A stretch of DNA of 52,394 nt from positions 1 through 52,394 of IMG/VR virus record IMGVR_UViG_3300042291_001547; one strand, given 5' to 3'. The notes under the pieces were generated by a model that worked only from the letters and a program-made list of their open reading frames with translations, had not been told where the DNA came from and made no database searches. This document shows, one piece after another, positions 8,962 through 39,053 of this stretch (within the stretch, counting starts at the first letter, position 1; each line of letters opens with the position of its first letter). The DNA is from a virus. Its lineage: Duplodnaviria; Caudoviricetes. The position numbers and the translations under genes are program-made.

Positions 8962-9209
8962 GCAAGGGCATTATCCGAAGCGAGATGAAATGCAACGCAC
9001 CTCGCTCGACGCCTGACCACCCTAAGAAAAGTCACGTCGTCAAAGCGTGTGCAGATGGAAAAGAGAAGGTTATCCGGTTCGGCCAGAAGGGCGTCAAAGG
9101 CTCCCCGGATGGCTCGGCCAGGAACAAGGCGTTCAAGGCGCGACACGCCAAGAACATTGCTAAGGGCAAGATGAGCGCAGCCTACTGGGCGGATAAGGTG
9201 AAGTGGTGA
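8958..9209 (+). CDS. Small basic phage protein
   Basis: KKSHVV..GKEKVIRFGQKG..AFKARH..SAAYWADKVKW; coupled ORF. Confidence 0.75.
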   Translation: MSKGIIRSEMKCNAPRSTPDHPKKSHVVKACADGKEKVIRFGQKGVKGSPDGSARNKAFKARHAKNIAKGKMSAAYWADKVKW

Positions 9210-9388
9210 GCAAAGGTCTGTACGCGAACATCCACGCCAAACGTGATCGAATTAAACAGGGCAGCGGCGAGAGAATGCGCACACCTGGCGACGAAGGTGC
9301 ACCAACCGCCAGCGCGTTTAAAGAGGCTGCCAAGACAACCAAACAGGCTAAGCGCACAGGCTTGCTTAGCAAAGCGATGAGGAGCTAG
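9206..9388 (+). CDS. Small basic phage protein
   Basis: GLYANIHAKR.RIK.GSGERMR.PG..GAPT..AFK; coupled ORF. Confidence 0.75.
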   Translation: MSKGLYANIHAKRDRIKQGSGERMRTPGDEGAPTASAFKEAAKTTKQAKRTGLLSKAMRS

Positions 9389-9390
9389 TG

Positions 9391-9753
9391 ATGGCGACAG
9401 TACAGTTTTCAAGCACCAGAGATGGCGCGATTGTGGTGACGTGGGCAGCGATGGGCGGCACAGACGACGGCTCGCCGTTCCGTTTACCGAGCATGACAGA
9501 CCTGACGTTTCAAGTGTCCGGCACTTTCGGCGGCGCAACTTGCACACTGCAAGGGTCTAACGACGGCACCACCTGGTCCACACTAACGCAAAGAGGCGGC
9601 TCTGGCGGCACGGCTATGGCGTATACGTCGGCGACAATGCACGCGTGTAACGAGAACCCTATGTTTGTGCGCCCTAACATTACCGGCGGCACGGGCAGCA
9701 GTATCAAGGTCGTTCTGGCGGCGTTCCCGCAATACGCTAAGACGGGGTACTGA
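9391..9753 (+). CDS. Hypothetical beta-rich virion-associated protein
   Basis: GAGGAG RBS; QVSGTFGGATCTLQGSNDGTTW. Confidence 0.7.
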   Translation: MATVQFSSTRDGAIVVTWAAMGGTDDGSPFRLPSMTDLTFQVSGTFGGATCTLQGSNDGTTWSTLTQRGGSGGTAMAYTSATMHACNENPMFVRPNITGGTGSSIKVVLAAFPQYAKTGY

Positions 9754-9755
9754 GT

Positions 9756-10121
9756 ATGAAACAAACGGGAATGATGGTCGCCATGATCTTTGTAGGACGA
9801 GATCTTGCGCACCGGCAGCACCTGCGCACCGGGTCTTACGCGGAGCACGTGGCGCTTGGCGCATTTTATGAGGGGGTGATCCCGCTGGTCGACGGTTTTG
9901 TCGAGGCGTACCAAGGGCGGTTCAATGAGCTGCTGGATATACCCCTGGTCGACAACGAATTTGAAGGCGAGATCAGCGACATCCTGGAACAGCAGATGGC
10001 GTGGATCGAAGACAACCGGGAGAAGATATGCCCCAGGAAGGAATCAGCGCTGAACAACGAGCTTGACACAATAGTGACTCTGTACCAGACCACTCTGTAT
10101 AAGCTGAGGTTCTTAGCTTGA
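9756..10121 (+). CDS. Ferritin/Dps-like protein (DUF5856-like)
   Basis: H..HL.T.SYAEH.ALG.FY....LVD.FVEAYQG...LNN.LD.I..L...TLYKL.FL. Confidence 0.75.
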   Translation: MKQTGMMVAMIFVGRDLAHRQHLRTGSYAEHVALGAFYEGVIPLVDGFVEAYQGRFNELLDIPLVDNEFEGEISDILEQQMAWIEDNREKICPRKESALNNELDTIVTLYQTTLYKLRFLA

Positions 10122-10155
10122 CCTTCTCAAAGCATGTCTTTACCATTGATTTCAA

Positions 10156-10182
10156 CTATCAAAACATAGAAAACGATAGAAA
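10156..10182. promoter_or_regulatory. Second CTATC-N14-GATAG element, upstream of the scaffold/capsid genes
   Basis: ctatcaaaacatagaaaacgatagaaa shares AAAACGATAGAAA and spacing with 4253-4279. Confidence 0.5.
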
Positions 10183-10388
10183 TGATTAATCTACCGCCAG
10201 CTGAGTGGGCTAAGGTCGAGGCCTGGGCTAACAAAGAACTAGACAGCGTGCGCGTGAAGAACGATTCAATCGGTCTATCGCCGGAGGAGACGGCCGCATA
10301 TCGCGGAGAGATACGTCTTCTTAAGAGAATAATCGACTTGCCCAACCGGGTGACTCGAGAAGTGGAGGCACCGCCGACGTCATTCTGA
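10182..10388 (+). CDS. Hypothetical head-module protein
   Basis: ETAAYRGEIRLLKRIIDLP; small helical protein between portal and scaffold. Confidence 0.75.
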   Translation: MINLPPAEWAKVEAWANKELDSVRVKNDSIGLSPEETAAYRGEIRLLKRIIDLPNRVTREVEAPPTSF

Positions 10389-10450
10389 CATCGCCGGGCC
10401 AGTTAGAGGTGGTTTAAAGCCACCCAATGACGAGATGACGGAGATACAAA

Positions 10451-11305
10451 GTGGCAAATGATGAGCAGTTGAGCGCGCAAGACGCGCAAAAGGCGTGGGA
10501 CGAGGAAGCTAACCGAACGGACCCAGTAGAGCTGGCTCCAGACGCGCAACCGGAACCTGAACCTGATCTTGAACCAGAAGATCCTTTTGCTGGGTTGCCC
10601 CCGGCACTGATGGAGAAACTTAACAAGATCGACGATCTTCAGAGAGCCAACGAGGATCTCAAGAATCACGTTAAAGCAGCTGAGGGTCGAGTGGCCGCAT
10701 GGCAGCGCGAACGGGATCAACAACGTCAGCAAGCTGAGATTGTTGCCCCAACGAAAGCTGAAGTGAGCACGGCCAGTGCAAACCCGGAGAAGTGGAATCA
10801 ACTTAAAGATGATTTCCCTGAGTGGGCTGAAGCAATGGAGGAGTACGTCTCTTCTCGCGTAGGACAGACTGGGCAGAACGTTTCGTCCGATCAAATAAAC
10901 ACTTTGATCGAGCAACGTACTGAGCAGATCCGTAACGAAACGAGAGAAGCCGTTGAGTACGCCAAACTAGAGACCAAGCACGAAGACTGGAAGGAAACCG
11001 TTAACAGCCCAGAGTTCTTGAGCTGGATGAACGAACAGCCGGTCAGCGTGTACAACCTGATTGACAGCCCCAAGGCTGCCGACGCGGTTAAGATTCTTGA
11101 TCTCTACAAAGGCGCGAAGAAGACTCCGGTATTGTCTACAGTTGACCAGATTAAAAATCAACGTAAGGCCACGCTTTCCAATGCGCTATCGACCAAGCCC
11201 GGGGTGTCACGCCAGTCTAAGACCATTGACTCAATGACCCCAGAAGAACTTTGGAACTACGAAGCCAGGCAGCTTAAGAAACGTCAAGAGCAGCAGGGTT
11301 TTTAA
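10451..11305 (+). CDS. Capsid scaffolding protein
   Basis: Acidic N-terminus, coiled coils, HEDWKETVNSPEFLSW; directly upstream of the capsid gene. Confidence 0.75.
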   Translation: MANDEQLSAQDAQKAWDEEANRTDPVELAPDAQPEPEPDLEPEDPFAGLPPALMEKLNKIDDLQRANEDLKNHVKAAEGRVAAWQRERDQQRQQAEIVAPTKAEVSTASANPEKWNQLKDDFPEWAEAMEEYVSSRVGQTGQNVSSDQINTLIEQRTEQIRNETREAVEYAKLETKHEDWKETVNSPEFLSWMNEQPVSVYNLIDSPKAADAVKILDLYKGAKKTPVLSTVDQIKNQRKATLSNALSTKPGVSRQSKTIDSMTPEELWNYEARQLKKRQEQQGF

Positions 11306-11330
11306 CAATCAATCATAGGAGTCTTGCCAA

Positions 11331-12389
11331 ATGGCAATCCAAAATTACGGTACAGTCGCGTCGCGTAACCTTATTCGCGCCGCTCAAGGTATGCTCGAAC
11401 ACGCTCAACCCATCACAGTGCTTGGTGACTTCGGTACCCAGCGCGAGATGCCAATGAACAGCACTGACACGCTGGTCTTCCGTCGTACGCTGCCGTTCGG
11501 CGCGTCTGCTGTTGGTACCACAATTGAAGGCACTCAGCGTTACGCTGGCACGCCGAACATTGACGCTACTAACTTCGTCCTGTCTGAAGGCGTAACGCCA
11601 AACAGCAACACTATCAGTTTCCAGGACGTAACCGTCCAGCTGCAACAGTACGGTATTCTGTTTAAGTACAGCTCCAAAGTTGAACAGCTGTACGAAGACG
11701 ACATCCCTGGCGAGATGGTTAAGCTGACCGGCGAGACCATGGCAGAAGTCATGGAGATGGTTCGTTACGGCGTACTGAAAGCCGGCTCCACGGTGATCTA
11801 CGCTAACGGCACTACCCGTGCTGGCATCAACACCGCTATCAGCCTGAACGCTATTCGTAAGGCTGCGCGTACTCTCGAGAGCAACCGTGCTCGCCGAGTG
11901 ACCAGCCGTCTGGCTCCTGGCGTTAACTTCGGCACCCGTGCCGTGCAGCCCGCGTTCATCGTGTTCTGCCACACTGACGCTGTTGCTGACGTGCGTAACC
12001 TGCCAGGCTTTACCCGCGTGGAAGAGTACGGCAGCTTCAAGCCTATCCACGACCGTGAGATCGGCGCTTGCGAAGACTTCCGTTTCATCAGCTCTCCGCT
12101 GCTGAAGTCTTTCCTGGCTGCTGGCTCTGGCACGCTCAACGGTATGCTGTCTATCGCCAACGCCAACGTTGACGTATATCCGTTCCTGGTGATCGGTGAA
12201 GATGCATGGGGACAAGTTGCACTCAAAGGCATGTCCGCGATCAAGCCTGTAGTTCTCAAGGCTTCTCAGACCAACCACGCTAACCCGCTTGGCCAGTTTG
12301 GCTACGTGGGCGCTTCGACTTGGTTTGCCAGCGTGCGTCTGAACGACGCGTTCATGGCGCGTATCGAAGCCGGCGTAACTGCCCTCTAA
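11331..12389 (+). CDS. Major capsid protein, N4-gp56-like family
   Basis: MPMNSTDTLVFRR, LSEGVTP, QYG.L..YS, EIGACEDFRFI, DVYPFLVIGEDAWG, NPLGQFGYVG; strong codon bias and AGGAG RBS. Confidence 0.92.
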   Translation: MAIQNYGTVASRNLIRAAQGMLEHAQPITVLGDFGTQREMPMNSTDTLVFRRTLPFGASAVGTTIEGTQRYAGTPNIDATNFVLSEGVTPNSNTISFQDVTVQLQQYGILFKYSSKVEQLYEDDIPGEMVKLTGETMAEVMEMVRYGVLKAGSTVIYANGTTRAGINTAISLNAIRKAARTLESNRARRVTSRLAPGVNFGTRAVQPAFIVFCHTDAVADVRNLPGFTRVEEYGSFKPIHDREIGACEDFRFISSPLLKSFLAAGSGTLNGMLSIANANVDVYPFLVIGEDAWGQVALKGMSAIKPVVLKASQTNHANPLGQFGYVGASTWFASVRLNDAFMARIEAGVTAL

Positions 12390-12395
12390 CCCCTG

Positions 12396-12417
12396 GGGCG
12401 CTTTTAACTGAGCGCCC
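12396..12417 (+). other. Stem-loop after the capsid gene
   Basis: GGGCGCT-8 nt-AGCGCCC with no immediate U-tract; stabiliser or weak terminator. Confidence 0.45.
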
Positions 12418-12440
12418 TGCCTTAATTTGAGGATCGCAAC

Positions 12441-12635
12441 ATGGCAGAAAGTATTAAACAACGTATGCCGAAGATTCCGGATCTGCTCACCTCGCGTGAA
12501 CTGACTCCCTTGCTTCTGGCAATGCAAGCTGACATCGCCGCACTGTCTACATCGTTGAATCAGTTGCGTACTGACTACAACGCTGCGACGGTTCCTACCA
12601 CGGCGACGGCAGTCACCCCTAACATCACTGCATAA
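12441..12635 (+). CDS. Small structural protein (possible capsid decoration)
   Basis: GAGG RBS; follows the capsid gene with similar codon bias. Confidence 0.65.
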   Translation: MAESIKQRMPKIPDLLTSRELTPLLLAMQADIAALSTSLNQLRTDYNAATVPTTATAVTPNITA

Positions 12636-12647
12636 GGAGACACTTTC

Positions 12648-13085
12648 ATGTCTTATAATATTGAACAGATTAACAGTGGCTACGTGTCGCTGATTTCCGG
12701 AGCGATTGCTGCCGGTACTAACGCAGGTACTTTTAAGACTACTGTTGCGGTGACGTACACCAACAACGGTATTTTTAAATCCAAAGCAATCACTGACAAC
12801 TTGGCGTTTTCCGCTGGCCACACGGCTCTCGGCAATAGCCAGGCTTGTTTGTTCGGTTTGTTCCTGGACACTAGCGGCAACGTGACTACCTCACAGGGTA
12901 TGATCGTAGCAGCTGGCGACCCTTGCCCGGTGCCAAACGCCCCGGCTTCTAACCTGACTCCGTTCGGTTTGATCAAGGTTAGCACCAGTTCCAGTCAGAC
13001 CTTTACCCCGGGCACTACAGTACTCGGCACTGGCAACACTGCGACGTTTACCAACATCGCATCAATGCCAGGCAGCGCGCAGTAA
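12648..13085 (+). CDS. Structural protein (possible capsid decoration)
   Basis: AAGGAG RBS; Thr/Gly/Ala-rich, beta-type composition. Confidence 0.7.
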   Translation: MSYNIEQINSGYVSLISGAIAAGTNAGTFKTTVAVTYTNNGIFKSKAITDNLAFSAGHTALGNSQACLFGLFLDTSGNVTTSQGMIVAAGDPCPVPNAPASNLTPFGLIKVSTSSSQTFTPGTTVLGTGNTATFTNIASMPGSAQ

Positions 13086-26444: not shown

Positions 26445-27325
26445 GAGGATTGATTGCAGCCGCGCTTGGTGGAGTATCCAGAGGCGTCGGTCAAGTAGCC
26501 GAGAAACAGATTGAAGTTAACTCTCGAAAGGCTTTGATGGAAGCCGAAGAAGAGATGAACGCGCGCCTGGCCGAGGCTGCCGAAGGTCGCGCGATTGCCG
26601 CTGAAGGCCGAGCTGAAACCCGCCTGCTTGCTGCTGAAGGCCGAGCTGATGCTCGCGCGATTGCCGCTGAAGGCCGTTTGGATCCTGTTGAGCGAGAACA
26701 ACTGAGTCTGCTTCAAGCGCAGGTCTCTGGGGTTAGACGTGACAGCGCTTGGACGGAGAAAGAGCAAGGCATTAGAACGCGGCTTGGCGATGCGGTTTTT
26801 GGTTCGGAAGATTATAATACCGCACAGCAAGAACTTGACGCCATGCTGACTACGGGCACCCGCGCGCAACGCGCGCAAGACAACGTTGCTGCGGGCGCCA
26901 GATATGTAGACCTGGCTGAGTTAAATTTTGATCAGGCTGAACAGCTCAGAAAAGACCTTCGCGATGGAAACATTTTTGAGCCAGATGACGTTGCCGACGC
27001 TAATGAACGGATAATTCAGCTTCAAAGAAACGCAGAACGGGCGATGATGGACGCGAACGACTTGCTGTCTGGTGGAGGCAGCGGCGCGCGGCAGACGCCG
27101 ACGCAACCGCGAGTGCCCCTGGGGGCGCAACCGCAAAGCGCTCCGCAACCGCAGAGCGCTCCGCAACCGCAGAGCGCTCCGGGGGTGTCGTCCAGAGGGA
27201 TTATCTCTACGCAACAACTGCTAGGGATTACCCCTTCGCAACCAAGAGACCTTACTTTGTTTTTCAGACCGGGGACTACTATTCCCGTACGGCCGAGAGG
27301 AGAAATGATTAGTGGAGTCTTTTAA
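26441..27325 (+). CDS. Putative internal virion protein
   Basis: MRGLIAAALGG N-terminus, AAEGR repeats, (PQSAPQ)x3. Confidence 0.6.
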   Translation: MRGLIAAALGGVSRGVGQVAEKQIEVNSRKALMEAEEEMNARLAEAAEGRAIAAEGRAETRLLAAEGRADARAIAAEGRLDPVEREQLSLLQAQVSGVRRDSAWTEKEQGIRTRLGDAVFGSEDYNTAQQELDAMLTTGTRAQRAQDNVAAGARYVDLAELNFDQAEQLRKDLRDGNIFEPDDVADANERIIQLQRNAERAMMDANDLLSGGGSGARQTPTQPRVPLGAQPQSAPQPQSAPQPQSAPGVSSRGIISTQQLLGITPSQPRDLTLFFRPGTTIPVRPRGEMISGVF

Positions 27326-30300
27326 TTACTTAGCCGCCCGCCAGGCGGGGTATTCTGAAGAAGAGATTGGTCGTTTTCTTGCAAACCAATATTCTTTTGA
27401 CTATGACGGCGCGGTAGCAGAGGGGTACAAGCCTCAAGAGATCGTAGACTTTTTGTCTATCCGAGAAACGAAACCTGTGGCTGCTCCTGAAGTAGAAGAG
27501 CGCACGGTAGGTAATGCTGTCCAGGATTTAGCCGCGTCGTTTGGCGTCGGCACCGGGCAGCTGGTTGGCCTGCTGGGTTCAGCTTACGGCTTGACCACCG
27601 GGGACATGGACAACAGAGCCACTCGATTTGGCGCCAACACTGCTGAGTTCTGGGAGGCGCGTAAAACGCCTATACTCAAAGCCGCTGAAGATTTGCGCCA
27701 GGCCAGGGTTGACGCTGCTGAAGGTGAGTTTGAAAAAGCCGGCGTCGCCATTTGGGAGACTATTAAAAACCCAATGCTGCTTGTCAGCGAAGTCACCAAA
27801 CAGGTGCCTAACTTAGCGGTGGGCGGCCTTGCTGGTTTAGGTGCTAAGACGGTTGGCAAAGTAGGCGCAGCAACTCTTGGCAAAGAACTTAGTGAGCAGG
27901 CGGTAACCAAAATTGGTGTAGGCGCCGCTACGGGCAGTGAGCTTGGTTTGTCTTCGGCTGATTTTGGTCAGTCCGCGTACGACCAGTTGATGGCAATACC
28001 TGACGAGGTGTGGGCTGCAAACCCTGACCTGCAGGAAAGAACCGGTGGAAACCCTGACTTGTTCTTTAGGGTCAAGCGGGAGATGGCCACTGAGCTTGCG
28101 CAGAACAGCGCGATCGCCGGCGGCATTGTAACGTTCGGCCTGAATAAGTTACCCGGCGCAAAGACCATTGAAAAAGTATTGGGTGGCGACGCGTTAACCG
28201 GCACAAGAACTCGACGTGCACTCACGGGTCTCGCAGGCGAAACGGTATCTGAGGGCGCTGAAGAAGTGGCCACACAGCTGTCCGCTAATATCGCTCAAGC
28301 CCAGATAGATCCCAACACTGATTTGACCGCCGGTCTTGGCCAGGCGGGTGGCCTTGGCGCGTTAGTCGGCGGCGCCTTTGGTGCTGGTGCTGGCGCTCTG
28401 TCCCCGCAGAGAGCAGAGGCTCTAGCCCCGTCAGGCTTAGAAAGCCTGTCCGTCGGGCAGACAGACACTATAAACGGCAACATTGTCTCTAGAACCCAAT
28501 CCGGTTTTGACATAACCACTCCGACCGGCATGCGCATTCAGACTGATCTTAGTGGCGCGAACACTATACTTAACCGCCCGGTCGAGGAGCAACGGCCGCG
28601 CGGACTCCTACGCGACGCAACCAACGCCGGTGAAGCGGTATCCGCTGCAGAAGATATTATTGGCAGCATCGACGCAGACATCGAAGCCTTGGAAAGAGAA
28701 GTAGACCTGGCGTCGACTGACGCAATCGTTGAGTCGATTACCCCTGCTCCGATTACCCCTGCTCCGATTACCCCTGCTCCGCAGGAGACCCTTCAGTCTG
28801 GTCGAGGCCTGCTCGCTCAAGAGATGACCGGTACCGCGTCTGTTACCTTGCCTCCGGTTGAACCTGCGCCTACGTTAACCCTGGAGGCATTGGCGTCGGC
28901 TGACATCTCCAGTATGCCCGCGCCTGAGCGACAAGAGTTTTTAGCGGATCTAAATTTTGCCCGTACGGCAGAGCTGCCCGCTCAGCGTCAGAGCGCGCTC
29001 ACCCGTGCAGCAGAGACCTACGGCAGAACAGTTGGTCCTATTCAGCAGCCCGTAGCTCGAGCAACGCCTGAAGAAGCCCTGCAGGCCACCAGGCAGCCTA
29101 CTGCTGAACGTCTGACCACCGCTGCGCCAGACATAGACGCGCTGTTAGGCGCCGACACCCGCGGCCTGGATCAGGAAGACCGTGCAGACTTTAACGCTCA
29201 GCTGGCCATGGCACGCACCGCAGAGCCTGGTCCAGTTCAGACCGCTGCACTTAACCGTGCCGCTGAGATTTACGGCCGAGCGATAGGACCTATCCAGCCG
29301 CGCACACAAGCGCTTGCTGCGGAAAGGGTGACCACTGCAGCGCCTGATTTAGACGCACTGTTGACCGCGGATACCCGCGCCCTGCCACAGGAAGATCGAG
29401 ACGACTTTAACGCTCAGCTGGCTATGGCGCGCACCACAGAGCCTGGCCCCGCGCAGACCGCTGCACTTAACCGTGCTGCCGAGATTTACGGCCGGACGAT
29501 AGGGCCTATTCAGCCGCGCACACAAGGCAGCGCTCGACCCGAAGCGCCAAGACCGACCCGGTTGTTAGGACGAGCCACTGAAACATACACCGCGCCTGAG
29601 CTGCAAAGCTTAGCGGACAACACCAAATTGCCGGAGATTACTCGCCGAGGCGCTCAGATTGAGCTGCGTGCGCGTTCTGATTTCGCGACGTCCTTTAATC
29701 CCACAATGGCGCCCATGCGCACGCAACCTTTAGAGGTGTCAACGAATGTCGAAATCACCAGAGCAGCCCCAGCGACGCTTCAGCAAGGAGGCGCTGCGTC
29801 ATTGCCTGACGCCGCTGTTAACGTACCGACTAGAGCAGATGAAAGACGTGCAGCCTTCCAGCCAATCCTCGACTCCGTCCTGCGCCCCGGCGACCCCAAA
29901 ATAACTCTGGGCGCTCCGACGCCTGAAGCAGAAGCCCAGATCCAGGAGATGAGCAGCATCCTTGGCAGCGCGTTTGGCCAGGATCTGCCCGTGGTGGCGT
30001 TCTCTGATCCTTCGCCAGAATCGCCAAACGGTTTTGCGCTTAAAGGCCAGGCGTTTGTTAACGTGTCCGGGTTGCAGATCTCTGCCCCGCGCACAACGCT
30101 GCATGAGTTTAAACACGTTGTCGAGCAGATTGCACTTGCTGAGCGCGCGGCGGGGCTTACCGACACCGCCGCCCAGGAGTTTACCGAGCAGATAGAAAGC
30201 ATTTTCGACGACATGAGCGAGGAGGGTAAACGCAGCTACGCTGAGAAGCTGTTGTTCACCGCAGAACTTGAAGGCCTTTCTGGCGCTGAGCGGGAGACCC

Positions 30301-33300
30301 GGCTTCAAGAGCTGTTGGCTGACCCACTGCTGCGCTCAGAGATGACCGCTGACTTCCTGGGCAACCGTGCGCAGGATAAAAAGTTTTGGACTGACCTGGC
30401 CGCGGCAGATCCGCAAGGGTTTACCGGGTTCGTTGAGCGCTGGCTGGCCGTTGTTAATAACCTGCTGGCGCAACTACGCGGCGCTAAGAACCAGGGGACT
30501 AAAGAGTCTGCCAGGGTCGACAAGTATATCAAAGACTTGAACAGAGCCAAGCTGACCGCGCAGAGCGCGCTGATTAATTACCGCAAGGCCACTGGCCAGG
30601 CGCCCGTTGCTACGCCTGCCGCAGCCGCAGCGCCTCAGTTCTCTATAAAAGAAGGCGCCTCGTTGGCGGACACTGCATCCTTAGCCGGTGCTAACCGAGT
30701 CTCATCGTCGCAGACCTGGCGAAAGGGGCGGGACTTGAAGGTCGCGCTCCAGCAGCGCGTGATTGACGCAGCTGCCGCGCGGGGCATAGACGTCTCCACC
30801 GATAGCCCCGAGACCCGTGAGTACCTGCGCGAAGTAGGTATGAAAGACGCACTGGCCGCGCTAAACCAAAACCCCAACGCCATTGGCTGGTACGACATTA
30901 AAACGCGCCAGGCCTTAGCCGTGATGTCTCTGGTTCACCCAGAGATCGCACGCGATGAGAACGCCCGGTTTGCGTTTACCTGGGCTTTGGCCGTTACTTC
31001 AAACGGCATGAAGGTAGAGCAGAATTTTGAGTTAGCTGAGAAGGCGTACGATCGGTACAAGCGCGACGGCGTAATGCCGTCAAACTTGGGGGCGGGTACC
31101 GCTGGAAAAGCGATTAACCAATCGCTCGCAATGTTCAACGAACTGCGCGACGCGTGGGGCATCGACAACCTACGCCAGTTCATGCAGACCAATTTTACGG
31201 TTAGCGAGATCACCGGCCTGAGCAAAGACCTGACCCCGGGCGGCGAGTTTGCAAACACCACGGTTAAAGGCGCTGCTATCCTTGGCCCTAAGATCGGCAA
31301 CGGGTTCTTCTCTAACCTGTACGGAGACTTCACCAGCCTGACCATGGATCGATGGCTTATCCGCACCTGGGGACGCTGGACGGGGACGCTTATCAAAGCG
31401 ATGCCTGAGCAGACCGCTCTGGCACGCACCCGGTTATCCAACAACGTGAAGGCTATAGTAGCGAACAAACAAGAGGCCGCTCGGTTAGAGGCGCTCATCG
31501 GCGCTGAGATCACCGCCGACATGGACGTTGATCAGTTGTCCGCGGTGGTACAAAAAGCGTCTATGGATCCTAAGATCCGAGCAAAGCTTAACGAGACTGA
31601 TCTAGGGCAGACCCTGCGACTGGCCGGCAATAGCCTGGCCAAGTATCTCGACGGGCAAAAAGAAGCGCCATCTGGGCCAGAAGAGCGTCAGTACATCCGT
31701 GCCGTGTTTAATGATATACTTGACGAGCTGAATCAGACAGACCAGTATAAAGACCTCATGATGGCAGATCTCCAGGCTGTCCTGTGGTATGCTGAAAAAC
31801 GGCTATACGAAACTGCTAAAGACGACCCAAATCAACTTGCCGCAGACGAAGGCGTCGAAGGTTATGACGACGAGTCTGCGCCAGACTACGCTAACGCCGC
31901 CGCGCGTATAGCTCGTCAGAAGGGCGTCACAGACAAGCGTATTAATGCGACATTAAAGAGAATAGAAAATGAACGATCAACAGCAGCACGATCTGAAGAT
32001 GGCGTCTCGCAAGACGCTGGAGACAGGCAGCCGGCAACAGGTAGAGGCTTTACTCGCCAAGAAAAACGCAAGTTCATTGGAGAGCGAGCCGTCCTCAGAG
32101 TCAGGGCCGATCGAATGGGCGATGCGCAATCACCCGGGTCTTACTCGTCAAAAGGCCAACCAGATGGCGGACGCGTTCGGGTTCTAAAATCTTTAGGTGT
32201 CTCGTACACCAACGAGTGGAAGTTAAACCGAGACGCCGCCACGGCGTTCAGGGCTAATAAGATGCCTGCTCCAGAGTTCCTGGAGTTGGCATCAACTGCA
32301 GAAAATGCTCAGAAATTTGCCGAAAGCATCTCAGAAAATAAAGCCACACATCCTTTTGGCGCAGCTGTTTACGTGTACTCTCCTGAAGAGTACCGAGACA
32401 TGCGCCTGTTCCTTACTGAAGACGGCAAGTCTGGCGTAGCAATCAAGCCTGACGGGGACATCGTTTCTGTGTTCAGTACCGGTGGCGCCGGACGAGCTGT
32501 AATGGAGCTGGCGGTGGCCGCGGGCGGAAGAAAGCTAGACGCCTTTGACACCATCCTCCCAAAGTTCTACGCACCGCATGGATTCCGAGCCGTTGCTCGA
32601 ACCCGGTGGAACGACGAGTTTGCACCAGAAGAGTGGAACAAAGACACGTTCGAAGAGTTTAACAACGGCGAACCCGACGTTGTATTCATGGTTTACGACC
32701 CCGCTAAGATGGACGCCGAGTACAGCGCTAAAGACGGCAAAGTCATGGCTGAGTACGACCGTGCGGTAAGTCTTCAGAACCGTGAGATGAAGCGGTTAAC
32801 GCCGCAGTTCAGCCGCAAGCAGGGCGACGTCCTGGCCAGAGATCCTCGTCTGGAGCAAGCCGCTCAGGGGATGAAGGAAGGTACGGTTACAAGCGCTGAG
32901 TACCGCGAGCTGGTAAATGCAATCAAGCCGGTTACCCCGTATACGGAAGCCCCAGATCCAGCCAAGCCCGAGGACATTCGACGCGCGCTGACGTCTGACA
33001 AACTTGATCGGATCGGCGTGCCCAGTAAAACGCTTAAGGCCGGAGACCCGGTCGGTCTGCGCCTGGATATCCCAGCCTACGCCAACCACGGCGTGTGGGT
33101 TGTCTCTGTTCACGATCAGATACCAGGCTTTGCTGCCGGCAAGTCGATCGGCTACGAGAGCGTGGCTTCGGTTACAAACCCCACCTTTGGCGTCGTTGAA
33201 AGCGCAGCGCTCAACATTGCCTCCGGGAAACCGAAAGCCACCATCGCGGTAATGAAGGGCGACTGGAAACCAATCACTCCTAAGCAAGCATCTGCTACCG

Positions 33301-36300
33301 CCAAGCTTGCTATGGATTCAAAGAGCTGGGCACAGGTGGGCATGGACCCTACCCGGCACGCGTACTTCTACGACCGCGCCACGCTCCAGCCAGTTGTGTC
33401 CGCTGACGAAGCAATCCAGGTGGGACCTCTCGTTCTTGCTAAGAACCCGGTGTACGGTAACAAAGAGGATTTTCATTTTAGCCGTAAGCAGGCCGATGAC
33501 ACCGACGAGCCGGTCAGGATTCGACTGGGTCGAACCGATAACACGGCTGCTAATAAGGCCTTGGATTCTCTCCAGGCTAAGCTTGCGGCCAACCCGCTAA
33601 ACGATAGAGAGCTTACGCGCAAAGGCGCAGCGGTTAACCTGTCCGTGGACAACGGGGCGCTACGCATATCCGATATTCGCAGCACATCACCCGGCCAAGG
33701 CGAGGCTTCAGAGCTGTTGGATATGGTGCTCGCCGAAGCAGACACCGCTGGCACAAAGGTTACGCTTTTCGCAGACAGCTACGTCGAAGACAGCGGGCTT
33801 AACACCGATGCCCTGGTCGATTGGTATTCTCGCCGTGGGTTTGAAGAGGTGCGACGAGACGAAGACGGCGTAGAAATGCGTCGGTACCCTGCTAATCTGC
33901 AGTTCAGCCGTAAGCAGGGCGGCGACGAGGTTGCAGACATCCGCGATGCCCGTGAAGAGCGGAACCTGCGAATGTTCTCTCAAGATTTACGGTCTCGAAT
34001 TTCAGATTCAGTTAAAACTCGCGCCGAGAATACCCGTAAAGTCGATGCTGAGGGGGGTTTCCTGGGCTTAGAAGTAGGAGACACTTTCTTGACCCAGGGG
34101 GCGGGAGGGCGCCGCTGGCGTAATAAGGTTATCGCTAAAAGTTTATCGCGTGTCGGTCCCTCTATGCGTAGGCCTACAGGTAACCTGAACCCTATATCTT
34201 CTGAATTTGAATATACTTTCGACAATACGGTTTACACCCCTGCCTTGTACGTAGAGACCATTGGTCCTGACGGAGACGTGTCGCAGACTACAAACCTGCT
34301 CTATCTCTTGGACCAGACCGGCTACACTAAAATGGGAGGGCCGAAGTTCAGCCGTAAGCAGACAGACACGCCCGACATCCGATTCAGCCTCAAGCAGCAG
34401 CCGTTTTACAGCAGCCTTAAAAGGGCTGTGGGTGATATGCCTGAGCGTATGCGCACGCAGCCTGCTAAACAGTGGGTGCAGTGGCTCACCTCGCCATCGA
34501 ATCAGAGCCGCTTCGGGTTTAAGAAAGACGAGGTCAGCTGGTCAGGCGTTGAGGATTACCTCAACCTACGCGGCAAGGATAAGGTCACTGCTGACGACAT
34601 CATCCAGTACCTGAACGAAAACAACGTGGTTGTACAGGACGTTGTGCTCGGTGGTACGCCGGTAGAAGAAAGCGCATACCCTGCCGGCACGTTCATGCTT
34701 CCGGAGTCTGGAGAGACTGGCGACATGGCGTATTGGCGCGAAGAGCTACAGCGCATTGCCGAGGAAGAAGAACTAGACGTTGATACTTTAATGGATGAGC
34801 TGGAGGATGTATCCGGTGAATCTATGCCTGTCGATGCTCCCGAAGACTCTGTTCAATACTCGCAGTACGTGGCAGGGCAGGGCGAAAATTACCGTGAAGT
34901 GCTGATCACTCTACCTGTCAAACAGGTTACAAAAACCTGGGTTGCTGACGACACTAAGAATGGTTGGCGGGTAAAAGACCAAGACGGATTGTATCTAGGC
35001 ACTATCCGTAAAGATAACGCCAAGACCGCGGAAGAAGCTATCGCCGAAGCCGCGCTTACGTTTCGAGGACGCAAACGTGCAGAGGAGGTGGACTATAAAT
35101 CTAGCCACTGGAGCGCGCCCAACGTTCTAGCCCATTTACGCGTGGATGACCGGTTTACATTAACGCCGTTGACGCCTGATGAAATAGCCAAGTTAGAGCT
35201 AATAGGCAAGGCTGAACCTAAGTTGAGCGCTGCGCGAAATAGATTAAGAGTTGCGCGGCGCGGTGCTGCTTTACGCCGCGACGTTCGTATCGATGCCCTT
35301 AAAGATGAGCTGCGGCCACTGGTGCGCGCGGGGCAGCTGCCCTTATCAGAGATGATTGCCAGACTGGATGAGGTGTCTAGCGAAGAAGATCCTTTAGTTA
35401 AAAAAGCAGCTGAAGAATTTCGCCAGTTGCAGGACTCTCTTTCAATTCCAAATACCCCTGTTCAAAATCGACAGAGCGTATTGTTCGTCAACGAAGTCCA
35501 GTCCGACTGGGGACAAGATGCTCGTAAAAAGGGTGTCCGGTCAGAGACTTTTGTAAAAGATGACAGATCAGTGTGGTCGGCTTTTGACGAATATACCGAC
35601 ACTCTTTACAGCGGCCGTTTTGACCGGGCGCTGGACTACTTAAGAATCAGATCTATAAATCCTGTGAGTTTTTTAAGGAATTCGTCTACTGATGAAATAA
35701 AAACGTTCTTCAACAAGTACGAACCTGAAAACGCAGCCGAGATAATTCCTTTGGCGGAGACTTATAAAAACGTAAGCGCGTTGCGTGAATCCCAGGCGGT
35801 GTCTTCTAAAGGCGTGTCCCCTGCACCGTTCATAGGCGACACCGAATCCTGGGCTACCTTGGCTATCAAGCGCGCGGTAATCCTGGCGGTGGACGGTGGC
35901 TACGATAAGTTGGCTTTCGTCAACGGCGAGCAAGCTGCTGAGATGTTTGATCTAAGTAAGCGCGTGGGAGAGATCTTATACAATGAGGGAGACGGTCGAT
36001 ACTCGTTAGTAATATACAGCCCTGACAATGACTTAATTCATAAGCAGGATAACGCCTCCCCAGACGATGTCGCTAACCTAATTGGTAAAGACCTGGCTAA
36101 TAAAATAGTCAACGGTGAAGGGGTGTACAGTGATAGTTACGGCGCCACGGTTATCTCGGGACTCGACCTGAAAGTCGGCGGTGAAGGCATGGCCGGTTTC
36201 TACGACGGCATCGTGCCTAACATCCTGCGTAAACTTGCCAAGAAGTTCGGCGGCACGGTAGCTGTTGAGCCAGTCCAGGTCAGCCCGGGACGTAGCAAGA

Positions 36301-39053
36301 CCAATGATCAGCTGACCTTAACCATCACCGACGATCTGCGTAAGCAGGTTGAGGGTGTCGGCCTGCCTTTGTTTAGCCGCAAGCAGAACATTTTCGGGCA
36401 GCCTTTGCCAGCCAGCAACTGGTCTGTCGAAGACGGCAAGATGGACGAAACGATCTACAATCTGCAGGACAAGCTGGTCGACACCAAGCGTGTGCTCCAG
36501 GGCATACGTAAAGCCAGCAACACTGTCGCCGACAGGTGGGACGGGTATCTGCAGGAGACGTTGTACCACGGTCGCACCGCTAAGCGCACAACCGACTTTA
36601 TTGATGACGAGCTGTCGCCTTTGATCAAGGGTATGGGCGCTGCCAACGTCAGCATGAAGGAGTTCGACACATACCTGCATAATCGCCACGCTCAAGAGCG
36701 TAACGCTGTAATAGCCCAGAGAAACCCAGCGCTGCCAGACGCCGGCTCGGGCATAAAAAGCGGTGACGCGCGTGCGTACCTGGCGGCTATGGATCCAAAT
36801 CGACGGGCGACTCTCGAGGCTCTTGCTCAGAAAGTAGACGCCATAACTGAGAAGACCCGCCAGGCGCTACTGGCCGGCGGTCTTGAGAGCCAGGCGGCCA
36901 TCGACGCGTGGGAGGCCACCTACAGTCAGTACGTGCCGCTCATGCGGGAAGAGCTAGACTTCGACCCCAGCAGTGGCTCAGGTGGCTCAGGCGCCGGGTT
37001 CGACGTTAAAGGCAGCTCGTCCAGGCGCGCCGTTGGATCTTCCTCAAGAGCGGTGGTGGACATCCTGGCCAACATCGCTATGCAGCGTGAGCGTGCTATC
37101 GTGCGTGCTGAGAAGAACCGAGTCAGCCAGGCTATGTACGGGCTGGCCATACAGAATCCGAACCCTGGCTTCTGGCTGCCGATAAACCCCGAAGCGATTA
37201 AAGACAAGACGGCTTTGGCAGCAGAGCTGGTGTCGATGGGCATAAACCCTTTGCAAGCGCAGAACATCGCCGAGCAACCAAAACAGACCTACGTTGACCC
37301 ACGCAGCGGGCGTGTTACTACCCGGCTAAAATCCTTCCTGGCAGACAATCCAAACGTGCTCGTAACCCGGGTTAATGGCAAAGACAGGTTCCTGCTCTTT
37401 AACAGCCAGGACGAGCGCGCCAACCGCATGGTCAAAGCCTTGAAGAACCTGGACGCGGATCAGCTTGGCCGCGCTTTGTCTACGGTCGCGGTAGGCACCC
37501 GGTGGTTCGCCAGCGTGAACACCCAGTACAACCCTATCTTCGGCGCGATCAACTTTACCCGCGACGTACAGGGCGGCATGCTTAACCTGTCAACTACACA
37601 AATCGCAGGCAAGCAGAAGGACGTTGCAAAAAACACCATGCCCGCGCTGATCGGGATCTATCGAGACCTGCGCAGTGGCACGCCAAGCCAGTGGGCTACT
37701 CTGTGGGAAGACTTCCAGCAGGCGGGCGGTCAGACCGGGTTCCGTGACCAGTTCAGCCAGAGCGAAGAGCGCGGCAAGGCTTTGCAAAAAGAACTTGACG
37801 CGCTGCGCGACGGGTCGGCTAAGAAAGCTGGTAAGGCTGTTCTTAACTGGTTGTCTGACTACAACACTGCTATGGAAAACGCGGTGCGACTGTCTGCGTA
37901 CAAGGTGGCGCTGGACAACGGCGTCTCTAAAGAGCAGGCCGCGTCATTAGCTAAAAACTTGACGGTCAACTTCAACAAAAAAGGCCAGGTCGCAACGCAG
38001 ATGGGCGCCTTGTTCGCGTTCTTTAACGCCAGCGTGCAGGGTTCTGCCCGGTTGTTGGAGACACTGAAAGGTCCAGCCGGCAAGAAGATTGTCTACGGCG
38101 GGCTGCTCCTTGGCTCCGCCCAGGCGCTGGCTATGGCTGCGGCTGGATTTGATGAAGACGAGCCGCCGCAGTTCCTGCGCGAGCGCAACATCATCATCCC
38201 AATCGGGGACAAGAAGTACCTGGCCGTGCCAATGCCACTGGGCTTTAACGTAATCCCCAACACCGGCCGCGTGGTAACCGAGTGGGCGATGTCTGGCTTT
38301 GAGAACACCGGCGCAAGGATGTTTGACTTACTCGGGTCTTTCGTTGACATGTTTAACCCGGTCGGCAACGCCGGGTTCTCCACGCAGACAATTCTACCTA
38401 CCGTTGCAGATCCGGTTGGGGCGCTGTTTGAAAACAAAGACTGGTCAGGCAACCCGATTGCAAAAGAACAATTTAGCGGTCTTGCTCCTACACCCGGTTA
38501 CACTCGCGCAAAAGACACGGCCAGTTGGTTATCCAAAGAGCTGTCTTACTATCTGAACCTGGCGTCCGGGGGCACAGAGTTTGCTCCTGGCGCGCTAAGC
38601 CCCACACCAGACCAGCTTGATTACCTGTTTAGTCAAATTACCGGCGGTCTGGGTAGAGAGATCATGAAGACCGAACAAACCGCCACGGCGTTAATAACCG
38701 GTGAGGATTTGCCACCGTTCAAGATACCGTTGTTTGGGCGATTGTACGGGGACACTAGCACCAGCGCTGCGGATGCTAACCGGTTCTACGAAAACATCCG
38801 GCGGATGAACATCCACAAGGAAGAGATCGATGGTCGCCAGAAATCTCGCAGGCCAGTAGGTGAGTACCTGCGAGAAAACCCTGAAGCCAGACTGGTCACC
38901 GCTGCGTCAAGTACTTACCGCGAGGTGCAGCAGATGCGCAATCGTAAGCGCGAGATGGTGGAGCGGGGCGCGTCGCGAGAGTCTGTCCGGATAATGGAGC
39001 AGCGAATAGCCTCTCGCATGAGGCAGTTCAACGATCGATTGGATCGTATGTAA
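27312..39053 (+). CDS. Giant polyvalent virion protein (3913 aa): zincin peptidase, HhH-glycosylase-like, two GNAT-like modules, LPD38-like C-terminus
   Basis: HEFKH...EMTAD; GPKIG..F...TMDRW...ADLQAVLW; GGRKLDAFD..LPKFY..HGF; PGQGEAS...WYSRRGF; C-terminal ENKDWSGNPI...LDYLF...TGGLG. Confidence 0.85.
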   Translation: MESFNYLAARQAGYSEEEIGRFLANQYSFDYDGAVAEGYKPQEIVDFLSIRETKPVAAPEVEERTVGNAVQDLAASFGVGTGQLVGLLGSAYGLTTGDMDNRATRFGANTAEFWEARKTPILKAAEDLRQARVDAAEGEFEKAGVAIWETIKNPMLLVSEVTKQVPNLAVGGLAGLGAKTVGKVGAATLGKELSEQAVTKIGVGAATGSELGLSSADFGQSAYDQLMAIPDEVWAANPDLQERTGGNPDLFFRVKREMATELAQNSAIAGGIVTFGLNKLPGAKTIEKVLGGDALTGTRTRRALTGLAGETVSEGAEEVATQLSANIAQAQIDPNTDLTAGLGQAGGLGALVGGAFGAGAGALSPQRAEALAPSGLESLSVGQTDTINGNIVSRTQSGFDITTPTGMRIQTDLSGANTILNRPVEEQRPRGLLRDATNAGEAVSAAEDIIGSIDADIEALEREVDLASTDAIVESITPAPITPAPITPAPQETLQSGRGLLAQEMTGTASVTLPPVEPAPTLTLEALASADISSMPAPERQEFLADLNFARTAELPAQRQSALTRAAETYGRTVGPIQQPVARATPEEALQATRQPTAERLTTAAPDIDALLGADTRGLDQEDRADFNAQLAMARTAEPGPVQTAALNRAAEIYGRAIGPIQPRTQALAAERVTTAAPDLDALLTADTRALPQEDRDDFNAQLAMARTTEPGPAQTAALNRAAEIYGRTIGPIQPRTQGSARPEAPRPTRLLGRATETYTAPELQSLADNTKLPEITRRGAQIELRARSDFATSFNPTMAPMRTQPLEVSTNVEITRAAPATLQQGGAASLPDAAVNVPTRADERRAAFQPILDSVLRPGDPKITLGAPTPEAEAQIQEMSSILGSAFGQDLPVVAFSDPSPESPNGFALKGQAFVNVSGLQISAPRTTLHEFKHVVEQIALAERAAGLTDTAAQEFTEQIESIFDDMSEEGKRSYAEKLLFTAELEGLSGAERETRLQELLADPLLRSEMTADFLGNRAQDKKFWTDLAAADPQGFTGFVERWLAVVNNLLAQLRGAKNQGTKESARVDKYIKDLNRAKLTAQSALINYRKATGQAPVATPAAAAAPQFSIKEGASLADTASLAGANRVSSSQTWRKGRDLKVALQQRVIDAAAARGIDVSTDSPETREYLREVGMKDALAALNQNPNAIGWYDIKTRQALAVMSLVHPEIARDENARFAFTWALAVTSNGMKVEQNFELAEKAYDRYKRDGVMPSNLGAGTAGKAINQSLAMFNELRDAWGIDNLRQFMQTNFTVSEITGLSKDLTPGGEFANTTVKGAAILGPKIGNGFFSNLYGDFTSLTMDRWLIRTWGRWTGTLIKAMPEQTALARTRLSNNVKAIVANKQEAARLEALIGAEITADMDVDQLSAVVQKASMDPKIRAKLNETDLGQTLRLAGNSLAKYLDGQKEAPSGPEERQYIRAVFNDILDELNQTDQYKDLMMADLQAVLWYAEKRLYETAKDDPNQLAADEGVEGYDDESAPDYANAAARIARQKGVTDKRINATLKRIENERSTAARSEDGVSQDAGDRQPATGRGFTRQEKRKFIGERAVLRVRADRMGDAQSPGSYSSKGQPDGGRVRVLKSLGVSYTNEWKLNRDAATAFRANKMPAPEFLELASTAENAQKFAESISENKATHPFGAAVYVYSPEEYRDMRLFLTEDGKSGVAIKPDGDIVSVFSTGGAGRAVMELAVAAGGRKLDAFDTILPKFYAPHGFRAVARTRWNDEFAPEEWNKDTFEEFNNGEPDVVFMVYDPAKMDAEYSAKDGKVMAEYDRAVSLQNREMKRLTPQFSRKQGDVLARDPRLEQAAQGMKEGTVTSAEYRELVNAIKPVTPYTEAPDPAKPEDIRRALTSDKLDRIGVPSKTLKAGDPVGLRLDIPAYANHGVWVVSVHDQIPGFAAGKSIGYESVASVTNPTFGVVESAALNIASGKPKATIAVMKGDWKPITPKQASATAKLAMDSKSWAQVGMDPTRHAYFYDRATLQPVVSADEAIQVGPLVLAKNPVYGNKEDFHFSRKQADDTDEPVRIRLGRTDNTAANKALDSLQAKLAANPLNDRELTRKGAAVNLSVDNGALRISDIRSTSPGQGEASELLDMVLAEADTAGTKVTLFADSYVEDSGLNTDALVDWYSRRGFEEVRRDEDGVEMRRYPANLQFSRKQGGDEVADIRDAREERNLRMFSQDLRSRISDSVKTRAENTRKVDAEGGFLGLEVGDTFLTQGAGGRRWRNKVIAKSLSRVGPSMRRPTGNLNPISSEFEYTFDNTVYTPALYVETIGPDGDVSQTTNLLYLLDQTGYTKMGGPKFSRKQTDTPDIRFSLKQQPFYSSLKRAVGDMPERMRTQPAKQWVQWLTSPSNQSRFGFKKDEVSWSGVEDYLNLRGKDKVTADDIIQYLNENNVVVQDVVLGGTPVEESAYPAGTFMLPESGETGDMAYWREELQRIAEEEELDVDTLMDELEDVSGESMPVDAPEDSVQYSQYVAGQGENYREVLITLPVKQVTKTWVADDTKNGWRVKDQDGLYLGTIRKDNAKTAEEAIAEAALTFRGRKRAEEVDYKSSHWSAPNVLAHLRVDDRFTLTPLTPDEIAKLELIGKAEPKLSAARNRLRVARRGAALRRDVRIDALKDELRPLVRAGQLPLSEMIARLDEVSSEEDPLVKKAAEEFRQLQDSLSIPNTPVQNRQSVLFVNEVQSDWGQDARKKGVRSETFVKDDRSVWSAFDEYTDTLYSGRFDRALDYLRIRSINPVSFLRNSSTDEIKTFFNKYEPENAAEIIPLAETYKNVSALRESQAVSSKGVSPAPFIGDTESWATLAIKRAVILAVDGGYDKLAFVNGEQAAEMFDLSKRVGEILYNEGDGRYSLVIYSPDNDLIHKQDNASPDDVANLIGKDLANKIVNGEGVYSDSYGATVISGLDLKVGGEGMAGFYDGIVPNILRKLAKKFGGTVAVEPVQVSPGRSKTNDQLTLTITDDLRKQVEGVGLPLFSRKQNIFGQPLPASNWSVEDGKMDETIYNLQDKLVDTKRVLQGIRKASNTVADRWDGYLQETLYHGRTAKRTTDFIDDELSPLIKGMGAANVSMKEFDTYLHNRHAQERNAVIAQRNPALPDAGSGIKSGDARAYLAAMDPNRRATLEALAQKVDAITEKTRQALLAGGLESQAAIDAWEATYSQYVPLMREELDFDPSSGSGGSGAGFDVKGSSSRRAVGSSSRAVVDILANIAMQRERAIVRAEKNRVSQAMYGLAIQNPNPGFWLPINPEAIKDKTALAAELVSMGINPLQAQNIAEQPKQTYVDPRSGRVTTRLKSFLADNPNVLVTRVNGKDRFLLFNSQDERANRMVKALKNLDADQLGRALSTVAVGTRWFASVNTQYNPIFGAINFTRDVQGGMLNLSTTQIAGKQKDVAKNTMPALIGIYRDLRSGTPSQWATLWEDFQQAGGQTGFRDQFSQSEERGKALQKELDALRDGSAKKAGKAVLNWLSDYNTAMENAVRLSAYKVALDNGVSKEQAASLAKNLTVNFNKKGQVATQMGALFAFFNASVQGSARLLETLKGPAGKKIVYGGLLLGSAQALAMAAAGFDEDEPPQFLRERNIIIPIGDKKYLAVPMPLGFNVIPNTGRVVTEWAMSGFENTGARMFDLLGSFVDMFNPVGNAGFSTQTILPTVADPVGALFENKDWSGNPIAKEQFSGLAPTPGYTRAKDTASWLSKELSYYLNLASGGTEFAPGALSPTPDQLDYLFSQITGGLGREIMKTEQTATALITGEDLPPFKIPLFGRLYGDTSTSAADANRFYENIRRMNIHKEEIDGRQKSRRPVGEYLRENPEARLVTAASSTYREVQQMRNRKREMVERGASRESVRIMEQRIASRMRQFNDRLDRM
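29112..29526 (+). repeat. 216-bp (72-aa) internal tandem duplication, plus a diverged upstream copy
   Basis: TTAAPD.DALL.ADTR.L.QEDR.DFNAQLAMART.EPGP.QTAALNRAAEIYGR.IGPIQPRTQ twice; weaker copy at ~28870-29050. Confidence 0.85.
31969..32187 (+). CDS. Candidate overprinted small protein in the +1 frame of the giant gene
   Basis: ATG after A-rich AAAGAG; GC-rich third positions in this frame while the main frame uses CGA/TCA/ACA/AGG; protein-like C-terminus IEWAMRNHPGLTRQKANQMADAFGF. Confidence 0.6.
   Translation: MNDQQQHDLKMASRKTLETGSRQQVEALLAKKNASSLESEPSSESGPIEWAMRNHPGLTRQKANQMADAFGF

Follow-up and report, generated by a model that had tools for sequence, protein, structure and literature searches.

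A giant, putative virion protein of a phage with a repeated FSRKQ peptide at its module junctions, a candidate cleavage signal for its own zincin-like domain

The DNA analyzed here is a stretch of 52,394 nucleotides (nt) from a virus of the Caudoviricetes (IMG/VR record IMGVR_UViG_3300042291_001547, positions 1 to 52,394), referred to as the window. The window is essentially one phage genome, and the same DNA is present in contigs of lake-water metagenomes across many studies. Its late (structural) gene block on the plus strand contains genes for the large terminase, the portal, the major head protein and tail fiber-like proteins, and closes with a giant open reading frame (ORF) as its final gene. 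The protein of 3913 amino acids (aa) encoded there is the subject of this work: it contains five copies of the pentapeptide FSRKQ at the junctions of its modules and a zincin-like domain of its own. A DNA polymerase gene lies downstream of the giant ORF on the opposite strand, and helicase, exonuclease, DNA polymerase and primase genes are found elsewhere in the window. Polyvalent proteins rank with the largest proteins of phages and carry anti-defense enzymes into the cell. That they are cut by zincins has been proposed since 2017 without sites or data.

By its sequence the giant protein clearly belongs to the phage-type polyvalent proteins, with many unrelated domains, an LPD38 domain, an HExxH...E motif and a late-gene context. 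In being a giant late-gene string of unrelated domains with LPD38 and an internal HExxH...E it is like the polyvalent proteins treated in the available part of PMC5512222 (Iyer, Burroughs, Anand, de Souza and Aravind, 2017). Pfam detected LPD38 alone (aa 3616-3807, positions 38157-38732; E 1.9e-38, 132.9 bits at a cut-off of 27), and the PHROG matches comprise the last ~870 aa of the protein and PHROG 2563 at aa 1661-1793. When the separate modules were searched with Pfam, NCBIfam and PADLOC, only LPD38, a sub-threshold Phage_L5_gp82 match and chance-level matches were obtained. AlphaFold2 (AF2) domains and homology breakpoints together divide the protein into at least eight separable units, and the homology partners differ from module to module. 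The features are as follows:

27312-39053, plus strand: giant ORF, 3913 aa, LPD38-type polyvalent protein, putative virion or ejection protein
27312-29825, plus strand: N-terminal region, aa 1-838, no family in library searches
29826-30593, plus strand: zincin-like (MPTase-like) domain, aa 839-1094, with HEFKH at 30102-30116 (aa 931) and EMTADxxGNR at 30339-30368 (aa 1010)
30639-30653, plus strand: degenerate junction FSIKE, aa 1110, codons TTC TCT ATA AAA GAA
30654-32807, plus strand: cassette 1, aa 1115-1832, shares 59% identity with a segment of the DC33 giant protein, holds the PHROG 2563 match
32808-32822, plus strand: FSRKQ junction copy 1, by motif search, homology breakpoint and AF2
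32823-33476, plus strand: cassette A, aa 1838-2055, recurs in other giants, Pfam Phage_L5_gp82 match below threshold
33477-33491, plus strand: FSRKQ junction copy 2; in lineages without FSR the cassette A tail has a conserved F/Y aligned to the F of this copy
33492-33902, plus strand: cassette B, aa 2061-2197, of which aa 2095-2190 (33594-33881) form an AcrVA5-like GNAT core
33903-33917, plus strand: FSRKQ junction copy 3, by motif search and AF2
33918-34346, plus strand: cassette C, aa 2203-2345, no family in library searches
34347-34397, plus strand: empty cassette FSRKQ-TDTP-DIR-FSLKQ; the same flanks in the relative L009 hold a 158-aa module TDTPAFKRWFGDSK...FDPAIP
34398-36371, plus strand: cassette D, aa 2363-3020, common to many giants
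36372-36386, plus strand: FSRKQ junction copy 5, precedes the conserved C-terminal module
36387-39050, plus strand: conserved C-terminal module, aa 3026-3913, carries LPD38

The FSRKQ copies start at positions 32808, 33477, 33903, 34347 and 36372 (aa 1833, 2056, 2198, 2346 and 3021), and a variant, FSLKQ, starts at 34383 (aa 2358). A first-pass annotation of this DNA had listed these motifs together with FSIKE, HEFKH and EMTAD, and direct search confirmed all of its coordinates. It had also reported a DNA pattern shared by the five exact copies; this pattern, TTYAGCCGYAAGCAG, has five matches in the window, which are exactly the FSRKQ sites, and none in 100 shuffles. From the composition of the protein 0.0013 copies of FSRKQ are expected (Poisson probability of at least five, 2.6e-17), 20000 shuffles of the giant protein yielded a maximum of one copy, and no pentapeptide is commoner in it. 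A repeat finder independently recovered the junction motif as families D3-D5. FSR[KR]Q was not found in the other ORFs of at least 100 aa that lie in plausible coding frames of the window, and the remaining FSR tripeptides in its long open frames occur in unlikely frames only. At the site orthologous to the degenerate FSIKE, the relatives P0003 and L009 read FSRQQ and FSRTQ, respectively.

The position of the motif relative to folded modules was analyzed with an AF2 model of aa 1650-2620 (24 aligned rows, mean per-residue confidence, pLDDT, of 62), in which confident cores are split by segments with pLDDT<50. The copies at aa 1833, 2056, 2198, 2346 and 2358 have four or five of their five residues in such segments (chance ~0.003), and FSIKE is located in the disordered tail (pLDDT<50) of a model of aa 810-1113. 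BLAST alignments to other phages begin or end at aa 1099/1116-1129, 1826-1843, 2056-2067, 2341-2365 and 3021-3031. Limnohabitans phage DC33 matches aa 1099-1829 (59% identity), Bacillus phage Dartukuta matches aa 3021-3906 (46%) in an alignment that begins exactly at junction copy 5, where it reads FSRS, and Methanosarcina virus MetMV matches aa 3031-3913 (44%). Among the IMG/VR relatives, alignments of cassette A span aa 1832-1843 to 2056-2067 and those of cassette D aa 2341-2365 to 3022-3024. No BLAST breakpoint was found at the junction at aa 2198; the alignment of AcrVA5 (6iuf) to aa 2095-2190 ends 8 residues ahead of this FSRKQ. The first-pass annotation had placed the motifs at apparent domain boundaries and had named homologue breakpoints and segment-wise structure prediction as checks; both agree with that placement, as alignment ends coincide with motif copies and the modelled copies lie in low-confidence linkers, not in folded domains. 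A Foldseek search of the PDB with the aa 1650-2620 model gave no match at E <= 0.001.

The spread of the motif in the family was determined with 120 giant relatives of 2152-6848 aa; P0002, identical to the query, was dropped, and greedy clustering reduced the set to 47 representatives. In IMG/VR a query with the single protein gave 5 loci, and a query with an alignment kept 80 loci of 521 relatives. FSR sites in the representatives fall at the start or end of a BLAST alignment in 55 of 88 cases, random sites in 23.2 ± 4.0 (maximum 37 in 500 trials), and the offsets of the true sites peak at 5 residues or less from the motif. The whole-protein count of FSR (88 observed, 19.3 expected) was rejected as an enrichment test and replaced by the breakpoint and permutation tests, since conserved homologous positions confound such a count. 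Junction FSR is present in 27 of the 47 representatives, few of which have three or more, and is missing from entire clades, for example those of P0020, P0024 and P0033, which have other residues ahead of the C-terminal module, SNISQN, FALPQN or YSRQN among them. The junctions of individual relatives read as follows:

P0004: FSR[TSRA]Q in 7 copies, and FSRGL
P0005: FS[KR]QR
P0010 and P0025: FSRRR and FSRQR
P0011: FS[KR]AQ and FSRRQ
P0031: FSRK[GQVS]
L005: FSRER in three copies

MetMV has FQR four times and FSR once. For a test of these dialects, 63 FSR sites in 27 proteins were used, all ahead of the C-terminal module or at its beginning; sites within it were excluded. The +4 residue is identical in 33 of 76 within-protein pairs (7.9 ± 2.6 after label shuffling) and the +5 residue in 44 of 76 (14.1 ± 3.6); none of 2000 shuffles reaches either observed value, and the concordance holds without the query protein. 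The junctions compared within one protein flank unrelated modules. A given module family changes its dialect with the protein that holds it: the module TDTPxFKxWFGDSK is preceded by FSRKQ in P0031, FSRSQ in P0006, L009 and L011, FSRQR in P0005 and FSRER in L005, and cassette D is preceded by FSLKQ here, FSRAQ in P0004 and P0006, FSRQR in P0010 and FSRKV in P0031. The motif variant is thus a property of the chassis and not of the cassette.

Upstream of the junctions lies the zincin-like domain. HExxH is found at about aa 700-1200 in nearly all giants, and 61 of the 63 junction FSR sites are downstream of it. When aa 810-1113 were aligned with the corresponding part of 19 giants (21-85% identical over that part), F897, G907, H931, E932, H935, E1010 and G1017 proved to be invariant in all 20 proteins and D1014, N1018 and R1019 nearly so. 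The zincin motif HEFKH...EMTAD of the first-pass annotation therefore stands as a conserved zincin-like active-site signature, and EMTAD is its conserved glutamate motif, since E1010 is invariant. The AF2 model of this part (pLDDT 79.8, predicted template modeling score, pTM, 0.75) contains a helix (62-78), three strands (85-89, 98-101 and 104-108) and the HExxH helix (116-137), with pLDDT 80-93 there, followed by a helical insert and then by a helix (196-207) with E1010. The core of the zincin-like metallopeptidases (MPTases), according to the available part of PMC5512222, has one helix and a three-stranded sheet ahead of the HExxH helix, and the glutamate is carried by a helix further on. 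In its predicted structure the domain of the giant protein has this layout; the peptidase activity is putative. Searches of Pfam, NCBIfam and PDB sequences with the domain gave no match, and in a wide fold search (VIA) with the model the list was filled by its C-terminal helical hairpin.

From these observations we propose a phage polyprotein with built-in processing. Its constant chassis would consist of the ~1100 N-terminal residues, ending in the zincin, and the ~890-aa C-terminal module with LPD38; between them would sit an array of exchangeable cassettes, including the AcrVA5-like acetyltransferase, each bounded by a short disordered linker that bears FSRKQ. The built-in zincin would recognize FSRKQ and cut there, either in cis or in another copy of the protein. 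Such cutting, in the filled head or once the protein has been ejected, would yield separate effectors and a separate C-terminal module. As in polyproteins, a short motif is repeated at domain junctions in flexible linkers. The dialects that follow the host protein count in favor of this proposal, because the cleavage sites in viral polyproteins follow the same pattern, and the zincin is left as the sole candidate protease among the late genes, since no prohead protease was recognized in the head-gene block between the portal and the head protein genes, where a CsrA-like gene and a scaffold-like ORF are found. We put the probability that the junction peptide is read and cut by the built-in zincin at roughly 0.45. 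The suggestion of the first-pass annotation that FSRKQ is a self-processing site is consistent with these observations and stays a hypothesis.

Several observations weigh against such processing. The Foldseek search of the PDB with the zincin model gave no match at E <= 0.001; of its weak rows, anthrax lethal factor (E 0.32 at a probability of 0.57) is the best zincin, and others are 3c37, a putative Zn peptidase, and an M61 peptidase. Many giants with HExxH have few or no FSR junctions (for example P0020, P0024 and P0033), P0067, P0119 and P0121 have three FSR junctions without HExxH in the same polypeptide, and in relatives FSR is found within the folded C-terminal module as well. The core of the motif is looser than FSR, because at the junction ahead of the C-terminal module the F is replaced by K, Q, R or A in some relatives with a class B zincin (see below). 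An MPTase is also present in the N4 virion RNA polymerase, ArdC and TraC1, which yet travel uncut, according to the available part of PMC5512222, and the metallopeptidase of the homologue phi24B gp47 is proposed, in the available part of bioRxiv 10.64898/2026.04.10.717836, to act on peptidoglycan. We found no proteomic data on this clade, and we infer from sequences both that cleavage occurs at all and which bond would be cut, when and by which protease. A complex prediction for the zincin domain with zinc and the 41 aa of aa 2335-2375 scored 0.01 at a mark of 0.32, which speaks neither for nor against binding.

Co-evolution of protease and site predicts that the type of zincin matches the dialect of the junction. 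Zincins were therefore assigned by BLAST to class A (the type of the query, n=10) or class B (the GHE[LM]xHxxK type, n=25). At the orthologous junction ahead of the C-terminal module, the +5 residue is Q in 9 of 9 class A proteins and R in 14 of 14 class B proteins; one class A and 11 class B proteins have no recognizable motif there. In a FastTree phylogeny of the C-terminal module, computed with the junction excluded, eight of the ten class A proteins group in one starred clade and the other two are placed on the unresolved base. Since the starred branches force only one change, the match is not independent evidence; it is what co-evolution predicts, yet it may reflect one historical event.

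Natural variants of the gene bear on the last junction. L015 (2419-9381 and 9860-12727) and L012 (2-5962 and 6441-10499) encode the C-terminal module as a gene of its own of ~950 aa, downstream of a gene of 2321 aa or longer. The separate module has its own leader of ~45 aa (MAETCTYTFQTGEGE...), followed by L-SEKRNIF where the giant protein reads L-FSRKQNIF, so that the split precedes the site of the last junction by ~45 residues. Since it is encoded separately in these two loci, the C-terminal module can work as a separate polypeptide. The split forms fit a release by cleavage and are no proof of it.

In L005 two frames, 2-4516 (1504 aa) and 4517-12679 (2721 aa), lie in the same reading frame with a single stop codon between them; this stop inside the gene for the giant protein could be due to read-through, a sequencing error or a recent split. 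The C-terminal module itself (~880 aa) is 44-46% identical among the lake phage, Bacillus phage Dartukuta (L002, 12001-14673) and Methanosarcina virus MetMV (L003, 12001-14601), a conservation that is unusually high across such hosts. The record of phage DC33 (PQ492659.1, 39 kb, with a gene for a giant protein of 3125 aa) has an Inoviridae taxonomy line at odds with its gene content.

The motif might alternatively be a recombination joint only, a microhomology of 15-22 nt for the exchange of cassettes whose uniformity results from exchange or gene conversion and whose peptide has no biochemical role. The following features of the DNA agree with this. All five FSRKQ copies read TTY AGC CGY AAG CAG and FSLKQ reads TTC AGC CTC AAG CAG, so that AGC, AAG and CAG are used throughout, while AGC makes up 29% of the serine and AAG 51% of the lysine codons of the gene (P ~7e-7 given the peptide); two copies are common over 22 nt with one mismatch. 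In L009 and L011, the nearest relatives with DNA at hand, the FSR serines are likewise encoded by AGY (6 of 6 AGC in L009; 7 AGC and 1 AGT of 8 in L011). Judging from these codons, the copies in this lineage additionally share DNA ancestry or are homogenized. Contigs of 4 of the 21 listed lake runs were compared at 85% likeness, and of the 13 joints listed three have both ends at most 12 nt from motif copies (30634>33893, 33928>34401 and, in three runs, 32829>33902). In one contig of 1979 nt, the part that matches cassette D is preceded, upstream of the junction, by ~1380 nt unlike the giant ORF. These contigs are a weak hint at cassette differences between strains, as the joint flanks of only 19-27 nt are flagged unreliable and a repeated motif alone could produce such joints. 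However, both serine codon families are used at identical FSR peptides in 4 of 8 genes examined (L005, where FSRER has AGC, TCG and TCG, as well as L061, L069 and L073), and it follows that across the family selection acts on the peptide. The only datable loss of a module also speaks against a mere joint. L009, 68% identical over aa 864-2357, reads ...MGGPQ-FSRSQ-TDTP[AFKRWFGDSK ... FDPAIP]DVR-FSQAQ-KSPLKLYSAL, and the query protein and P0003 read ...MGGPK-FSRKQ-TDTP-DIR-FSLKQ-QPFYSSL. The 158-aa module was lost in frame with both junction motifs kept and the break TDTP/DIR inside the module, whereas recombination from motif to motif would leave one copy; judging from this alignment, cassettes turn over, though not by that route in this case. 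Lineage dialects would moreover hinder exchange, yet the same modules sit behind different dialects. The suggestion of the first-pass annotation that the motif is a microhomology for swapping modules thus has mixed support: the uniform motif DNA and, weakly, the strain contigs that diverge at motifs speak for it, and the mixed serine codons and the loss inside a module speak against it. As an explanation by itself the joint is unlikely. It and the processing by the zincin are not mutually exclusive, and a combination, in which [FY]-S-R-x-[QR] is a lineage-specific cleavage code of LPD38-type giants, read by the zincin for the release of cassettes such as the AcrVA5-like acetyltransferase, and in which the same 15-22 nt serve in this lineage as DNA joint for cassette exchange, is conceivable but doubtful.

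The peptide could also be functional without being a substrate of the zincin, as the site of a host protease or of a different phage protease, as a self-cleaving F-S bond or as a docking motif for packaging, unfolding or ordered ejection, with the zincin directed at host targets such as peptidoglycan or proteins. Self-cleavage by an N-to-O acyl shift takes place at 'HFS' sites in Nup98 and PIDD, one of the copies here reads HFSRKQ, and serine is the best conserved junction residue across lineages. The mutually unrelated upstream modules argue against a common autoproteolytic fold ahead of the F-S bond. A role of the zincin outside the protein would agree with the cell-wall degradation to which the phi24B authors assign the gp47 metallopeptidase and with the effector role listed for MPTases in PMC5512222 (available parts of both). 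For a docking motif no partner is known, and the lineage dialects point to a partner co-evolving in the phage and not to a conserved host enzyme. We regard an explanation of this kind as rather improbable. Even less can be said for a passive linker, that is, the inherited end of an ancestral linker which spread by module duplication and is conserved through recent common descent. FSR-rich arrays are indeed concentrated in one part of the family, with junction FSR in little more than half of the representatives, and the F of copy 2 corresponds to an aromatic residue of the cassette A tail that is conserved also where FSR is missing. On the other hand, the motif persists amid variable linker residues on its flanks, it spans a lake phage of proteobacterial type, a Bacillus phage (FSRS) and a Methanosarcina virus (FQR/FSR), and the use of both serine codon families indicates selection; we regard this explanation as very unlikely.

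In picornavirus and potyvirus polyproteins, the sites of the 3C and NIa proteases form a short motif at every junction, located in flexible linkers and with virus-specific variants that match the virus's own protease. The protein described here differs from these in being a putative packaged virion protein of a DNA phage, with cassettes shuffled between lineages and with putative proteolysis. In polymorphic toxins, VENN (CdiA) and PxxxxDPxGL (Rhs) divide a constant part from exchangeable modules and can be both processing site and homology point for exchange. There one motif precedes one C-terminal toxin, whereas here a putative phage virion protein contains an array with up to 8 junctions. 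Guidance of cassette exchange by the motif, if it takes place, would account for the diversification of the arrays, and a single short element would then govern how the payload is processed as well as how it evolves.

Giant genes at the end of the structural module are likewise known from Bcep22-like and 933W-like podophages. JC1 gp69 ('DarB-like', 4515 aa; PMC9144972) and phi24B gp47 (2811 aa, with LPD38 and a metallopeptidase, proposed as an ejection protein; bioRxiv 10.64898/2026.04.10.717836) were found in virions by mass spectrometry; the available parts of these two reports describe no processing or junction motif, and anti-restriction or peptidoglycan roles are suggested by the authors. 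Among the tblastn matches to the giant protein are records of Stx-converting, Burkholderia and Ralstonia phages. A processing of polyvalent proteins into units by MPTases was proposed in PMC5512222; in the available part of that paper we found no junction or cleavage motif named, and the term 'cleavage site' occurs once. Compared with it, the present analysis adds exact candidate sites, lineage-specific variants and their relation to module breakpoints. Our literature search found no junction motif with lineage-specific variants described as candidate cleavage sites and nothing relevant on an FSR motif. A defined junction peptide provides exact candidate cut sites and makes the processing proposal experimentally simple. 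The junction rule could furthermore split thousands of unannotated giant ORFs into cassettes and thereby speed the discovery of anti-defense modules; here it isolates the AcrVA5-like unit.

AcrVA5 is a GNAT-fold anti-CRISPR protein and a small early gene product, whereas cassette B is embedded in a giant, putative virion protein; going by the alignment, the whole 96-residue chain has its counterpart in the cassette. In the phmmer comparison with 6iuf_A (E 1.9e-5), query residues 35-130 align to chain residues 1-94 of 96. Foldseek against the PDB gave a probability of 0.98 at E 0.15, with all GNAT rows at E > 0.1, and Pfam gave no match for cassette B. The sequence match suggests that cassette B is a putative anti-CRISPR-type acetyltransferase that would be delivered within the virion protein and not made after entry. 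Among the other cassettes, the nearest cluster of cassette 1 in the protein atlas provides a lead, with DUF7178 on 12% of its members, and cassette A occurs twice in tandem in L027 and L038. Cassette D contains an extra stretch of ~108 aa (aa 2615-2722, positions 35154-35477) that is present in none of the aligned homologues; contig joints of other runs around it are 34780>35091, 34780>35482 and 35152>35482.

In the head-gene block, a small gene at 9756-10121, flanked by the portal gene and the scaffold-like ORF, has a match to PHROG 858 ('starvation-inducible transcriptional regulator') at E 1e-17. According to the available part of the JC1 paper (PMC9144972), CsrA is virion-associated in Bcep22-like phages, and its number falls between those of the portal and major capsid proteins. 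The N-terminal region of the giant protein contains two repeats: a 216-nt repeat (x1.9) at 29113-29526, which encodes 72-aa units and has a third, diverged copy upstream, and a perfect 15-nt repeat (x3.1) at 28735-28781, encoding ITPAP three times. One contig of run X12 is without 15 nt at 28735, showing that the copy number of the 15-nt repeat varies in the population.

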